Source of the DNA: Candidatus Bathyarchaeia archaeon
GTDB lineage: Archaea; Thermoproteota; Bathyarchaeia; Bathyarchaeales; DTEX01
Length of the DNA: 64,000 bases
Reading direction: 5' to 3'
Assembly (NCBI GenBank): GCA_038897035.1
Contig: JAWAXF010000005.1
Span: 4,648-68,647 of the forward strand
The translations under genes were made by a program, and so were the position numbers. This document shows, one piece after another, positions 1,981-7,270 of the stretch. The stretch's first letter is position 1; each line of letters opens with the position of its first letter. Under the pieces are notes generated by a model. That model did no database searches. It worked only from the letters and a program-made list of their open reading frames with translations, and was not told the DNA's origin.

Positions 1981-3198
1981 ATGAATAAGGAGTGCTACAT
2001 GGCTGTAGTGAACATAAAACAAGATTACTGTAGTCGTTGTCTAATCTGTTATAGTGTTTGCCCCTACGAAGCTATTAAACTTGACGCGGAGACTGGAGCA
2101 TTAGAAATAGATAATCAAAAATGTCAGGTATGCGGAATATGCTATGGTGCCTGCCCATCCCGAGCGATAGAAATCGCCTATTATGATTACTCTGACTTAA
2201 TCAAGTATACTGAGGAGATTATGCAAAGAACAAAAGCTGACACGTTGGTATACACATGTCGTGGTAACTCACCCACTTTTGAAGAGATTAAGGAGTTACT
2301 CGCAAGTGAGAGGCTTATAGCAGAGAATATTGTGTCTTTACGTCTTCCATGCTCAGGAAGAGTACCGATGGAGTTTATTTTTAGTGCTCTAAAAGCTGGA
2401 GCTAAGAAGATAATATCTATACGGTGTAATGATGAATTTTGCCGCTTTAAGAAGGGATCAAGGATCAACGCTATACGTCTGAGCATAGGCAAAAAGATTC
2501 TTGAGATCTTGGGATATCCGGGCGACGCAATTGCCGCCATTGAATATTCACGAAAAGCTGTTTATTTCACAGAGAAATGCGTTGGATGTGATAAATGTGT
2601 TTTTGTTTGTCCTTATAAAGCCATTGAGGCCGAGAGTTTCGCAACACCAAAAATACTTGATGAAAAATGCATGGGCTGCGGCTTATGCGCGTTAGCTTGT
2701 CCACATCATGCAATACAAGTTAAGGGATTTGAATTTGAAAATATTTTAAAGCGCTATACAAGTGCGGCGGCAAAGCTAAAGGCTGAGGGAAAATCCCCCA
2801 TTGTTTTAGTTTTCTGCTGCCTATGGTCAGAGTTCTCCTTCCTCGACAGGCCTGAAATTGAGATTGCCAAAAGGAATTCTGTGGTAATAGAGATCCCATG
2901 TTTCAAAGCCCTCGATCCAGTTCATGTAATCTATGCTCTACAAAATGGTTTTGATGGTGTGATAGCTGTTGTATGCTCAGACGAGGATTGTAAACTTAAG
3001 GAAGGAAGAGACGTTGCTGAAAGAAACATAAGGGTCTTAAAAGATGTTCTTTTAAAAATGGGTCTCAGAGAGCGCTTTGAGCTTTTTGAATCGTCCCCAA
3101 GATTTTTAGGGAACTTTGAAAAAAGACTAAACGATTTTGTAGAAAAGGTTTCAGGTTTCCATGCTAAAGAGAATGTAGGAGGGAAAAGGAATGTATGA
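1981..3198 (+). CDS. Polyferredoxin with two MvhD/FlpD-like domains
   Basis: Four CX2CX2CX3CP motifs (CSRCLICYSVCP, CQVCGICYGACP, CVGCDKCVFVCP, CMGCGLCALACP) arranged as two pairs. Each pair is followed by a Cys-rich MvhD/FlpD-like module ('YTCRGNS..LPCSGRV..IRCNDEFCRF' and 'VFCCLWSEF..IPCFKALD..VVCSDEDCKLKEG'). The stop overlaps the next ORF's start. Confidence 0.65.
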   Translation: MNKECYMAVVNIKQDYCSRCLICYSVCPYEAIKLDAETGALEIDNQKCQVCGICYGACPSRAIEIAYYDYSDLIKYTEEIMQRTKADTLVYTCRGNSPTFEEIKELLASERLIAENIVSLRLPCSGRVPMEFIFSALKAGAKKIISIRCNDEFCRFKKGSRINAIRLSIGKKILEILGYPGDAIAAIEYSRKAVYFTEKCVGCDKCVFVCPYKAIEAESFATPKILDEKCMGCGLCALACPHHAIQVKGFEFENILKRYTSAAAKLKAEGKSPIVLVFCCLWSEFSFLDRPEIEIAKRNSVVIEIPCFKALDPVHVIYALQNGFDGVIAVVCSDEDCKLKEGRDVAERNIRVLKDVLLKMGLRERFELFESSPRFLGNFEKRLNDFVEKVSGFHAKENVGGKRNV

Positions 3199-4021
3199 AA
3201 TCTTAGCTGTTAAAGAGCTGGCTCCGAAGATTAAATGGTTTGAAGTTTATGCTCCGCATATAGCTAAGAAAGCTAAGCCAGGGCAATTTATAATATTAAT
3301 CATTAATGAGAGGGGGGAGAGAATTCCTCTAACGATGGCCGGATACGATAGAGAGAAAGGAACAGTTTCTTTTGTCTTTAATGAGGTTGGTAAGACGACA
3401 AAACAGCTCGGTCTCTTAAAAGAGGGAGACCGTATATGGAATATTGCAGGTCCTCTGGGAAACCCCTCCGAGATCAGAAAATTTGGTAAGATTTTATGTG
3501 TAGCTGGCGGAGTTATGATTGCCCCTATGCTTCTGCAAATTAAGGCCCTGCGTGAGACTGGAAACGAAATTACGGCCGTTATTGGCGCAAGAAGAAAGGA
3601 TCTCCTCTTCTTTAAAGAAGAGATCAAAGCTTTAAGCCACCACTTCTATATAGCGACGGATGATGGCTCAGAAGGATATAAAGGGCTGGATTTCCTTAAG
3701 GAGATTGTTAGCAAGGAAAAGTTTGATAGGTGTATTATTATGGGTCCTGTTCCGACACTTCAAGCTGTAAGCGAAATTACTCGACCATACAACACTCCGA
3801 CAATTGTTTCCCTGATGCCCCTTATGGTTGATGGAATGGGCATGTGCGGCGTCTGTCGAGTGTTTGTAGGGGGCAAAATGAAGTTCACATGTGTCGATGG
3901 CCCGGAATTTGATGGTCACCTCGTCAATTACGAAGAGTTAATTAGGCGTCAACGTATGTTCCTCTCAGAGGAACGTTTAAGCGCATTACTCTGGGAGCTT
4001 GGAGGGATAAAATATGGCTGA
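3191..4021 (+). CDS. NfnA/SudB-like small subunit (ferredoxin-NADP reductase fold with C-terminal Fe-S Cys cluster)
   Basis: 276 aa, PyrK/SudB-like layout with C-terminal '[18 protein letters not shown]'. Overlaps both neighbouring genes by 8 nt, consistent with translational coupling. Confidence 0.7.
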
Positions 4022-5426
4022 AGCTTCGCCTAAAGAGAAAATTAAGAAAAAAGCTGTACCAATGCCCAAGCAGATCCCTGAAATCCGCATAAAAAACTTT
4101 AATGAAGTCGCATTAGGTTACACTGAGGAACAAGCGATAGAGGAGGCTAAGCGCTGCCTTCAGTGCAAACAGCCACAATGCGTCAAAGGTTGTCCTGTCG
4201 AAATAGATATTCCTGCATTCATTAAGTTTCTTCGCGAAGGAAACTTTGAAGAAGGTATTAGAAAGATTAAAGAGAAAAACAGTCTCCCAGCTATATGTGG
4301 CCGAGTCTGTCCTCAAGAAGATCAATGCCAAAAATATTGTGTTCTAGGTAAAGTTGGCGAGCCTGTCAGTATAGGTAGACTTGAAAGGTTTCTGGCAGAT
4401 TGGGAGCGAGCCAGAGGTTTAGAGATACCTGAAAGGGCTCCATCTACGGGTAAAAAGGTGGCCATCATAGGTTCGGGACCAGCTGGCTTAACCACCGCAG
4501 CCGACCTCGCAAAATTGGGTCATGAAGTTGTGGTCTTTGAGATTTTACACCTTCCAGGTGGCGTACTAACTTATGGAATACCAGAGTTCCGTTTACCAAA
4601 AGATATTGTGAAAGCTGAGGCGGAATATATCCAAAAGCTAGGAGTAGAATTCAAGTATGGCTACGTCATCGGAAGAACCTATACAATACATGAACTGCTA
4701 AATGATGAGGGATTTGACGCTGTCTTTATTGGTACCGGAGCTGGCCCGCCAATGTTTATGGGTATACCCGGAGAAAATCTCTGTGGCGTATATAGTGCAA
4801 ATGAGTTCCTTATACGCGTCAATTTAATGAGATCATATCTATTCCCAGAATGGGATACTCCAATAAAGATTGGGGATAAGGTGGCTGTTATTGGCGCTGG
4901 AAACGTGGCTATGGATGCGGCTAGGTGCTCTCTGAGACTTGGTGCTAAGGAAGTTCATATAATTTATAGGCGGTCTAGAACTGAAATGCCAGCTAGAATG
5001 GAGGAGATAGAGAACGCGGAAGAGGAGGGCGTAATATTCGATATACTCACTCTTCCAGTGGCATATTATGGCGATGAAAAAGGCTGGGTGAGGAAGATGG
5101 AGTGCATTAAGATGCAGCTAAGCGAGCCGGATGAATCTGGAAGGCGCAGGCCAGTTCCCATACCGGGCTCTAACTTCACAATGGACATTGATACGGTGAT
5201 AGTTGCCATTGGCCGAAGACCTAATCCGCTTATACAGCAGACTACACCTGGGCTTAAGGTTAATGAGGATGGAACAATAGTGGTTGATGAAAAAATGCGA
5301 ACTAGCATCGAGGGCGTGTATGCGGGCGGAGATATAGTTACTGGTGAGGCAACCGTTATAAGCGCCATGGGAGCCGGGAGAAAAGCTGCCAAATCAATTC
5401 ATGAATATCTAATGAAAAAGAGATGA
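4014..5426 (+). CDS. NfnB/SudA/GltD-like large subunit (NAD(P)H-dependent FAD/Fe-S oxidoreductase)
   Basis: N-terminal Fe-S Cys motifs ('[15 protein letters not shown]', '[15 protein letters not shown]') and two Rossmann motifs ('IIGSGPAGL', '[10 protein letters not shown]'). 470 aa, as in glutamate synthase small-chain-like proteins. Confidence 0.8.
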
Positions 5427-6288: not shown

Positions 6289-6421
6289 CAACGTGTTAGA
6301 GACTTAAATAACCATCCTTTTCTTTCTTAATTTTTGAGATAAAAAATTGACTTAAATTTAAAATATTTTTTTGGGTTATTCCTTAAGGTGAAGTTGCGGA
6401 GATTGATGGTTGGGAGAAAAG

Positions 6422-7270
6422 ATGAACAGAACTGTCAGAATTGGTGTATTGAAGGCTGGTTGTTTGGGTTCACTACCATTATTAGAATTTCTTTTAGACG
6501 AAAGAGCTGAAAGAGAGGATATTGGTGTAAGGGTTATTGGTTCTGGAGCGAAAGTAACCGTGGAGGAATGTATTGAGTGCGCTAATGAGATTTTAAAGCA
6601 GAACCCTGATATCATAATATTTGTTGGACCAGCCCAGACGACATCTGGGCCGACTGAGGCACGTAAGGTACTCAGAAAAGCAGGTAAACCAGTAGTAGTT
6701 ATTTCAGATACCCCGGCAAAGAGGATCATTAAGGAGCTTGAGGAAAACGGCTTCGGGTATATAATTGTTGAGGCAGACTCGATGATAGGTGCTAGAAGAG
6801 AATTTCTAGATCCATCAGAAATGGCCCTCTATAATTCTGATGTAATTAAAGTTCTAGCCATAACCGGGGTTCTAAATATTATAGTTGAGGAGCTTGATAA
6901 AGCAATTAGCGCAATCAAATCCGGAGAAAAACCTATTTTACCAAGAGTGGTAATAGACGGTAAGGTAGTTGCTGAGAGATCTGGTTTTTCAAATCCATAC
7001 GCTAGGGCGAAGGCTATGGCGGCTTATGAGATGGCTAAGCAGGTTTCAGCAATGACCATTGAGGCTTGCTTTAAAATATATGACCCAGGGCTTTATATTC
7101 CATTGGTTACCGCAGCGCATGAGCTCATGAGGGTTGCTTCAAAACTAGCTGACGAAGCCAGAGAAATCGAGAAGGAGAATGATTCTGTACTGAGGAAACC
7201 ACATTACAAGGATGGCTCAATTGGAGTAAAAAGAAGCTTGATGGAGAAGCCATCTAAGATAACCAGTTAA
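6422..7270 (+). CDS. mtd: F420-dependent methylenetetrahydromethanopterin dehydrogenase
   Basis: Collinear match to methanogen Mtd as I recall it: 'LLDERAEREDI', 'GARREFLDPSEMALYN', 'NPYARAKAMAAYE', 'LADEAREIEKENDSVLRKPH'. The ATG at 6422 lies inside the listed ORF. Confidence 0.85.
   Translation: MNRTVRIGVLKAGCLGSLPLLEFLLDERAEREDIGVRVIGSGAKVTVEECIECANEILKQNPDIIIFVGPAQTTSGPTEARKVLRKAGKPVVVISDTPAKRIIKELEENGFGYIIVEADSMIGARREFLDPSEMALYNSDVIKVLAITGVLNIIVEELDKAISAIKSGEKPILPRVVIDGKVVAERSGFSNPYARAKAMAAYEMAKQVSAMTIEACFKIYDPGLYIPLVTAAHELMRVASKLADEAREIEKENDSVLRKPHYKDGSIGVKRSLMEKPSKITS

Follow-up and report, generated by a model that had tools for sequence, protein, structure and literature searches.

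We analyzed a 64,000-nucleotide stretch of DNA from a Candidatus Bathyarchaeia archaeon (GenBank assembly GCA_038897035.1, contig JAWAXF010000005.1; henceforth the window), in which five genes follow one another on the plus strand: open reading frames (ORFs) 1981-3198, 3191-4021, 4014-5426, 5563-6288 and 6410-7270, here numbered ORF1 to ORF5. With moderate confidence we favor the interpretation that they represent three independent units that merely happen to be neighbors in a single hot-spring lineage of genus or family rank, namely an MvhD-wired variant of the Nfn enzyme (ORF1-ORF3), a stand-alone candidate methylene-tetrahydromethanopterin (methylene-H4MPT) reductase (ORF4) and the F420-dependent methylene-H4MPT dehydrogenase Mtd (ORF5). 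A previous reading of the letters alone (the sequence-only reading) had instead seen in them a candidate for a single undescribed methylene-H4MPT reductase module. One part of that idea survives, in that an unconventional enzyme resembling methylenetetrahydrofolate reductase (MTHFR) is plausible at this node, given the fold, the residues and the mtd, cdh and metE-like context of ORF4; the joining of the Nfn and MvhD proteins with a MetF-like protein into a single module is unsupported. Exact-protein look-ups recovered the same run of genes on contigs of Candidatus Bathyarchaeia metagenome-assembled genomes (MAGs), such as GCA_038840575.1.

The layout of the locus was confirmed as previously noted, with all five genes co-directional and two overlaps of 8 nt each, one between ORF1 and ORF2 (ATGTATGA, 3191-3198) and the other between ORF2 and ORF3 (ATGGCTGA, 4014-4021); ORF1 is the first gene of this translationally coupled trio. 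The trio is separated from ORF4 by a spacer of 136 nt (5427-5562, 27% GC), which contains a run of six T at 5469, a TATA-like box (ATATTTATTAA) at 5503-5513 and a GGAG at 5551. A second spacer of 133 nt (6289-6421, 29% GC), with a run of five T at 6331, TTTAAAAT at 6357 and a GGAG at 6413, lies between ORF4 and mtd, which according to the gene callers starts at the ATG at 6422 (282 aa) and not at the TTG at 6410 that opens the maximal ORF. These promoter-like elements were detected by simple pattern checks, a sigma-70 scanner being unsuited to archaeal promoters, and in both spacers the TATA-like boxes are placed ~50-60 nt ahead of the ATGs. The A/T box and GGAG-like site of the first spacer are kept in the four loci most closely related to the window (L006-L009), and TTAAATTTAAA of the second spacer is likewise kept in relatives. 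Hence, the first spacer likely contains a predicted terminator together with ORF4's own promoter and the second the predicted own promoter of mtd, and the evidence favors three transcription units.

Searched as a single sequence, ORF4 (241 aa) has no match in NCBIfam, among the sequences of the PDB or, with the threshold relaxed to E<=10 and the MTHFR family (PF02219) included, in Pfam; weak matches to P450 and TrmJ were dismissed as chance. Its likeness to MTHFR is visible only through a profile of its family and through its predicted fold. The searches recovered 687 homologs, of which the best 120 are 76-95% identical to ORF4, nearly all 241-242 aa in length and nearly all from Bathyarchaeia; they go by the name of "hypothetical protein" in NCBI and, in some cases, of MTHFR in IMG. 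An exhaustive search among 50%-identity representatives delineated a family of 117 clusters, whose full-length members are ~235-260 aa long, and a profile search of a 5.8-billion-protein set, dominated by the close clade, contributed two usable distant members. When a profile of 75 family members was run against the PDB it recovered the MTHFR of Thermus thermophilus (E=1e-6) and about a dozen further MTHFRs, with the non-MTHFR remainder of the 22 matches being unrelated and weak. In turn, 33 of these 75 representatives match the Pfam MTHFR family (best E=6.7e-19), which is the only Pfam family recovered. The AlphaFold2 model computed from the family alignment (pLDDT 97.5) is a closed (beta-alpha)8 barrel of eight strands and eight helices, and the possibility that ORF4 is merely a truncated MetF lacking its C-terminus was ruled out on this count. 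Foldseek searches with the model are dominated, in the top 50 PDB matches, by the mycobacterial enzyme Mfr (MSMEG_6649) and by MetF/MTHFR, with E of ~1e-7 and TM scores of 0.65-0.72 at the top and a TM(query) of 0.6-0.72 for MetF/MTHFR and Mfr chains across these 50. No match of ORF4 to Mer, the F420-dependent methylene-H4MPT reductase, or to other luciferase-like families was seen in Pfam or NCBIfam (TIGR03555/NF002619), no Mer is present in the PDB profile matches or the top 50 of Foldseek, and we found no description of the family in the literature searched. Thus, the proposal that ORF4 is MTHFR-like fails for the single sequence, which scores with none of the MTHFR profiles, and stands for the family, from whose profile and model ORF4 is identified as a divergent, compact enzyme of the MTHFR superfamily.

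The pattern of conserved residues is consistent with this placement. A hidden Markov model alignment sets the family's "RGD" motif upon Arg118-Gly119-Asp120 of eMTHFR, such that Asp92 of ORF4 corresponds to Asp120, and a conserved histidine upon His88. Three residues, namely Glu6, with which beta-1 ends, Gly91 and Asp92, do not vary in 183 sequences of the Bathyarchaeia clade and are invariant or nearly so in 77 distant ones, position 92 being Glu in three of the 183 + 77. The Bathyarchaeia clade has Ile or Val at position 60, which aligns with His88, and Met at position 90, which aligns with Arg118, where the distant members keep the His in 57 of 77 cases and the Arg in 47 of 77; counted in family numbering, the wider-family positions replaced in this clade are His60, Arg62, Asp65 and Arg90. 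We take His88 and Arg118 of eMTHFR to lie at its FAD site. The beta-1 glutamate and the aspartate at position D are the catalytic and pterin-binding residues shared by MTHFR, Mfr and Mer (PMC11094777). To judge from these residues, the pterin chemistry of ORF4 looks retained and its cofactor site appears to have been remodeled. Given its lack of a score at the Pfam threshold and the replacement of the residues aligned with His88 and Arg118, ORF4 is not to be filed as a canonical MetF.

Comparison with the known reductases points in the same direction. ORF4 shares with the FAD-dependent MetF/MTHFR (Escherichia coli, T. thermophilus; PF02219) the barrel and the family-profile match, the "GD" after beta-4 that aligns with Gly119-Asp120 and a glutamate whose place, where beta-1 ends, resembles that of Glu28. 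It differs in being ~50 residues shorter (241 versus ~290 aa), in belonging to a Bathyarchaeia clade devoid of Pfam matches with Ile/Val and Met at the positions of His88 and Arg118, and in its likely substrate, which the neighboring genes and the absence of folate genes from the KEGG table for relatives suggest to be an H4MPT derivative. The top Foldseek match is Mfr (PDB 7wmz, 8bgr), a flavin-independent methylene-tetrahydrofolate reductase that functions as a stand-alone barrel by direct hydride transfer, with a beta-1 glutamate (PMC11094777). Were ORF4 to lack a flavin, Mfr would be its best mechanistic analog, even though the two are only 13-14% identical and Mfr is a bacterial, folate-specific, NADH-dependent protein of ~290 aa, in which the acidic residue at position D is not strictly conserved, unlike the invariant Asp92 of ORF4. 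With Mer, ORF4 would share the proposed reaction and the N-terminal position of the beta-1 glutamate (Glu6 in jMer; PMC11094777), although Mer belongs to a different superfamily. Hence, a flavin-free ORF4 would work most like Mfr or Mer, by stand-alone direct hydride transfer, and would by descent belong to the MTHFR superfamily. As a lead only, the N-terminus of ORF4, MKILHEFVP, resembles MKFGIEFVP, the presumed N-terminus of Mer.

To obtain contextual information we scanned the GTDB species genomes with a 14-member alignment, which recovered 247 relatives of ORF4, all within the Bathyarchaeia clade; 80 loci were fetched and 79-80 of them analyzed, with neighbors within five genes of ORF4 counted in 79 loci by means of ORF clustering and Pfam. 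The commonest neighbor is cofE (46/79 loci), followed by CooC-like ATPases with CdhA/B/C (39/79 for cooC, 17 for cdhA), acd (21), a nitroreductase-family gene (15), cofD (14), frhB (10), mtd (7), a pair of metE-like genes (6) and nfnAB (4). The occurrences of mtd outside the clade of the window (L059, L065 and L084) represent three lineages with three different arrangements. Elsewhere ORF4 mostly lies between genes of the opposite strand, with ~100-150 nt of upstream space, and in other lineages no gene is conserved as a closely spaced partner of it on the same strand. Mtd makes methylene-H4MPT, CODH/ACS consumes methyl-H4MPT, and MetE-type enzymes consume a methyl-pterin or a corrinoid-bound methyl group. 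The neighbors of ORF4 thus touch the methylene/methyl-H4MPT node. In the closest outgroup member (P0122, 54% identical, locus L097, where the two genes occupy 7252-7968 and 8001-8771) the gene lies 33 nt downstream of one for a DmrX-like dihydromethanopterin reductase, which matches TIGR02700 over its full length with 240.7 bits, just below the cut-off of 251. Two more distant members, P0208 near a glycine-cleavage P protein gene, and P0236 between UbiA/UbiX-type genes and a weak homolog of 5-formyltetrahydrofolate cyclo-ligase, are not decisive. Separately, two of the loci carry gene fragments adjoining the ORF4 homolog: that in L053 (899-1249, plus strand) matches only positions 199-287 of the 287 of the Pfam MTHFR model (E=9e-10), and a like fragment in L051 (about 1206-1399, minus strand) is frameshifted; from their sequences both have the look of canonical metF remnants beside the mini-MTHFR gene.

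In anoxic sediments, Bathyarchaeia rank with the most abundant archaeal groups. The acetogenic or methylotrophic lifestyle proposed for them requires the H4MPT Wood-Ljungdahl pathway to be complete, yet reconstructions in the literature have time and again recovered neither mer nor metF in many lineages (PMC8407382). The calls for these genes that we used come from the KEGG table of Qi et al. 2021 (PMC8407382, Data Set S2), which covers 35 hot-spring Bathyarchaeia MAGs: mer (K00320) is scored zero in 21 of the 35 and metF (K00297) in all 35, while most of the calls for fwd, ftr, mch, mtd and cdh are positive. For the relatives checked, folate genes are not found in this table, and for the missing step its authors invoked "an alternative and unknown complex" (PMC8407382). 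Among the MAGs scored zero for mer are JZ_bin_23 (the same as L007), which of the relatives bearing all five genes in a row is the closest, and also DRTY-8_2_bin_26 (L010) and DGJ8_bin_44_34 (L016). ORF4 is a concrete single-gene candidate for this gap, which neither Pfam nor the metF call of KEGG detects. A tblastn search of the 1.48 Mb of fetched loci with an approximate Mer query found only two luciferase-like genes, neither of which reaches the Mer cut-off: one in L015 (6859-7866, minus strand), 2 kb from the ORF4 homolog, whose best model is Mer with 135 bits (cut-off 276), and one in L069 (97-966, minus strand). Both encode luciferase-like F420-type oxidoreductases near the ORF4 homologs. 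The low score of the former implies that some of the KEGG mer calls may be luciferase-like paralogs. As for F420 itself, most of the 35 MAGs have cofD and cofE but are devoid of cofG and cofH and, for the right-hand half of the table, also of cofC (PMC8407382), with the F420 head group being either scavenged or made by enzymes that are yet to be recognized.

On these grounds we propose that ORF4 would act on its own as a compact enzyme of the MTHFR fold that has kept the beta-1 glutamate and the pterin-binding aspartate after beta-4, reducing methylene-H4MPT to methyl-H4MPT, i.e. the step of Mer, with the hydride passed to it directly by a diffusible donor. F420H2 would be the favored donor, because cofE, cofD and frhB are among the commonest neighbors of ORF4 and the adjacent Mtd is of the F420 type; NAD(P)H would be the alternative. 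The F420-dependent Mtd encoded by ORF5 would supply the substrate. Its identification by the sequence-only reading is borne out: the protein scores 379 bits with the Pfam MTD family (PF01993) and 367 bits with the NCBIfam equivalog for F420-dependent Mtd (NF002162), the cut-off being 297, and by these scores it is an Mtd of the F420 type. The adjacency of ORF4 and mtd is probably meaningful, because the two would catalyze consecutive steps.

No Mer was seen among the window ORFs scanned or listed, a result whose scope is these 64 kb. Several observations weigh against taking ORF4 as the general substitute for Mer. QZM_A2_bin_23 (the same as L008) has a K00320 count of 1 together with an ORF4 homolog; likewise, a homolog of 77% identity occurs in a Bathyarchaeum sp. 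MAG, and the cultivated Bathyarchaeum tardum has an annotated mer. The occurrence of ORF4 homologs where mer is annotated implies that ORF4 is not simply a replacement of Mer everywhere. Its candidate function rests on a predicted fold, two conserved residues and the gene neighborhood, and the equivalence of Glu6 with Glu28 is one of position only, at the end of beta-1. Moreover, adjacency to cofE could equally mean a role in the metabolism of F420 as opposed to its use.

This last point leads to an alternative under which ORF4 would be an enzyme related to pterins or deazaflavins and not a catabolic substitute for Mer. It could be an anabolic reductase of methylene- to methyl-pterin that supplies MetE-type methionine synthesis, with a luciferase-like Mer homolog performing the bulk of the step, or an enzyme of F420 or H4MPT biosynthesis or salvage. 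The prevalence of cofE, the frequent adjacency of cofD and of the nitroreductase-family gene, and the general paucity of cofG, cofH and cofC in these MAGs, which would leave steps of F420 synthesis to enzymes of another kind, all fit such a role, as do the two metE-like genes adjoining ORF4 in six loci, the DmrX-like H4MPT biosynthesis gene beside the outgroup member and the co-occurrence with annotated mer in some lineages. We nevertheless consider it rather unlikely, as the invariant residues are those that MTHFR uses for activation of the methylene-pterin and for binding of the pterin, the association with cdh, cooC, acd and mtd fits central C1 flux, and conservation of 74-95% across the class suits a core enzyme. 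Further, the sole "Mer-like" gene that was tested beside an ORF4 homolog, that of L015, falls far below the Mer cut-off.

Turning to the first unit, the assignment of ORF2 and ORF3 to the NfnAB family holds. ORF2 (276 aa) scores 368 bits with PRK06222 (cut-off 220), with the small subunit of Pyrococcus furiosus NfnI as its best PDB match (E=1.7e-79) and Thermotoga maritima NfnA also recovered (E=4.4e-72). ORF3 (470 aa) scores 648 bits with TIGR01316 (cut-off 472) and matches T. maritima NfnB (E=1e-184) and the large subunit of P. furiosus NfnI (E=3.7e-169). They are thus true homologs of NfnA and NfnB, encoded together, and are full-length with all the cofactor domains of NfnAB and Xfn/NfnII: FAD and [2Fe-2S] in the NfnA/SudB-type small subunit, and two [4Fe-4S] clusters, FAD and the NADPH site in the NfnB/SudA-type large subunit. 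They differ from these enzymes in having a third, co-translated subunit of two ferredoxin + MvhD repeats, and in the nucleotide-binding loop of NfnA, which in ORF2 reads AGGVMIAP (about residues 104-111) in place of the canonical GGGVG(I/V)A, seen as GGGVGIA in T. maritima NfnA and GGGVGVA in P. furiosus NfnI.

The variant loop proved to be linked to ORF1. Its last glycine is replaced by Met in all six ORF1-linked NfnAs, whose mutual identity is 70-91% and which share a conserved 10-residue tail. In the two of the four closest loci that lack ORF1, L006 (7627-8460) and L008 (7653-8495), NfnA has an intact GGGVGIA and is only 51-56% identical to the ORF1-linked type. NfnB is orthologous throughout (78-88%), while the type of NfnA and its loop co-vary with the presence of ORF1. 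A P. furiosus fragment (3lyu/3lrx) that aligns with ORF2 likewise lacks the glycine loop; this we take to be the small subunit of Xfn, which is not known to use NAD.

ORF1 itself (405 aa, or perhaps 399 aa if it starts with the ATG at 1999) has the duplicated architecture that had been read from its sequence, with two copies of a pair of [4Fe-4S] ferredoxin motifs followed by an MvhD/FlpD-like domain. Pfam FlpD/MvhD (PF02662) matches two stretches, with 118 bits and above threshold, Fer4 matches four, and the two halves are 29% identical to each other (E=2e-21). MvhD subunits of solved structure can be aligned with each of the two MvhD-like parts, which retain the cysteines of the aligned regions: in the second domain all four match, and in the first the alignment begins past the first cysteine. 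The best NCBIfam match (167 bits) is to the C-terminal ferredoxin-MvhD part of HdrA2. ORF1 thus resembles MvhD of the Mvh-Hdr complexes and the C-terminal extension of Methanosarcina HdrA2 in its MvhD cysteines and in this match, and differs from both in being free-standing and duplicated and in being encoded with NfnAB, not alongside hydrogenase genes or as part of an HdrA fusion. Its homologs (>1200 matches) are widespread in Bathyarchaeia and, among those listed, are ~400 aa long and 60-81% identical.

In three other lineages (L091, 2163-10450; L093, 2172-10454; L094/L095, with L094 3324-11458) the trio stands in a longer conserved block with the order: divergent HdrA-MvhD-like protein (~790 aa), HdrC/B-like CCG protein (369 aa), thioredoxin-reductase-like flavoprotein (~311 aa), ORF1, NfnA and NfnB. 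In two of the three, acd and the small and large subunits of a [NiFe]-hydrogenase are encoded downstream; in none of the three does ORF4 accompany the trio. This arrangement suggests an NADPH-linked complex of the Hdr type. In the window, the translationally coupled operon would accordingly specify an Nfn-type iron-sulfur flavoprotein, in which NADP(H) would be oxidized or reduced at the FAD of NfnB and electrons would pass through two [4Fe-4S] clusters, with an NfnA variant whose NAD-binding glycine loop is altered. The extra subunit, with its four [4Fe-4S] clusters and two MvhD-type [2Fe-2S] domains, may dock on this NfnA variant and replace or supplement the NAD branch, thereby wiring the enzyme, and hence NADPH, to an Hdr-like partner. 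Counting against this scheme is that the loss of NAD binding is itself deduced from the altered loop of ORF2. HdrA-NfnB fusions of ANME-1 have been discussed in a similar sense (PMC9012536). The presence of an MvhD-wired Nfn variant near Hdr-like genes offers a lead on Hdr-type bifurcation in these non-methanogens.

The alternative that the trio and ORF4 constitute one complex, in which an MvhD-wired Nfn-like NAD(P)H/ferredoxin module drives a MetF-like reduction of methylene-H4MPT, draws on the MetFV-HdrABC-MvhD system of the acetogen Moorella thermoacetica and on the MetF proposals for ANME-1 and Ca. Syntrophoarchaeum, which share the idea that a MetF-type protein replaces Mer and receives its electrons via MvhD modules (PMC9012536). 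It could appeal to the adjacency and co-direction of the genes in the window and four close relatives, to the replaced residues of ORF4 at the positions of His88 and Arg118, for which ORF4 might need a partner to supply electrons, and to the MvhD domains of MetF and Hdr complexes already known, which serve these as adaptors for electrons (PMC9012536). Comparison of the loci lends it no support. Gene order had been expected to be conserved in relatives; by tblastn over the 80 loci, Nfn genes together with Mtd are found beside ORF4 only in L006-L009, where ORF4 is 89-95% identical, whereas the 76 loci devoid of the Nfn adjacency still have an ORF4 that is 74-82% identical. Nothing Nfn- or MvhD-like occurs within 10 kb of ORF4 in the other 75-76 loci, and ORF4 adjoins the MvhD gene in only 2 of the relatives' 80 loci, ORF1 being missing from L006 and L008, i.e. 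two of the four syntenic relatives. The flanking genes for Dph6, TatD, L14e and Cbf5 are syntenic in L006, L007 and L009 and partly so in L008; as these unrelated flanks are kept equally well, there is no special retention of the cluster that would mark selection upon it. To this are added the two spacers with promoter-like boxes, the monocistronic state of ORF4 in other lineages and the occurrence of the trio with Hdr-like genes in the three lineages that have no ORF4 beside it. Lastly, ANME-1-type MetF always adjoins MetV (PMC9012536), whereas no MetV/MTHFR_C or Hdr domain was found in the five ORFs or in the other annotated window ORFs (the gene-call table for ~10-33 kb and selected larger ORFs beyond), and outside one lineage ORF4 is not in an operon with an MvhD protein. 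In favor of some linkage, nfnAB-ORF4-mtd is kept in all five species of the window clade, and a lineage-specific functional link is possible. Nonetheless, we regard a single complex as quite improbable, and the adjacency of Nfn and ORF4 as probably incidental, an accident of gene order. The notion that the Bathyarchaeia clade of ORF4 is a non-catalytic or repurposed TIM barrel, with its MTHFR features being ancestral leftovers, would accord with the complete want of Pfam MTHFR matches and with the four replaced wider-family positions, but is very improbable in light of the near-complete conservation over 183 sequences, including Glu6 and Gly91-Asp92, and of the consistent C1-related gene context.

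Going beyond the favored interpretation of three separate units, we tentatively raise a more far-reaching possibility, which we hold to be less probable than that interpretation itself. ORF4 might typify an undescribed class of methylene-tetrahydropterin reductase, minimal in size (241 aa), flavin-free, of the MTHFR fold and dependent on F420H2 or NAD(P)H, that serves as the real "Mer" of many Bathyarchaeia, while ORF1-NfnAB might separately be the NADPH-fed input module of an Hdr-type bifurcating complex. If true, the new class would close the mer/metF gap in many Bathyarchaeia and link the seemingly unconnected lineages of MTHFR and Mfr, and a flavin-free or F420-dependent ORF4 would bear on the question of divergence versus convergence among MTHFR, Mfr and Mer (PMC11094777).

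Among the remaining genes of the window, positions 10146-14478 encode an aconitase-family pair of large and small subunits (10146-11929), an isocitrate/isopropylmalate-type dehydrogenase (12106-13137) and an HMGL-like synthase (13231-14478), which looks like an ordinary chain-elongation cluster of the leucine/lysine type. Two products, of 553 aa (52435-54096, minus strand) and 260 aa (40818-41600, plus strand), have no Pfam match at E<=1e-5. A region on the minus strand (22070-28867) comprises genes for a Mre11-like Metallophos protein (22070-22768), a DUF87/HerA-like protein (22771-24369) and NurA (24362-25552), followed by a nitroreductase, an unannotated 389-aa protein and a second DUF87 protein, and looks like ordinary archaeal DNA-end-processing and repair genes. 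Finally, the gene at 38420-40273 (minus strand) encodes a ferredoxin-linked, tungsten-type aldehyde:ferredoxin oxidoreductase (AFOR_N + AFOR_C), which looks ordinary for Bathyarchaeia.

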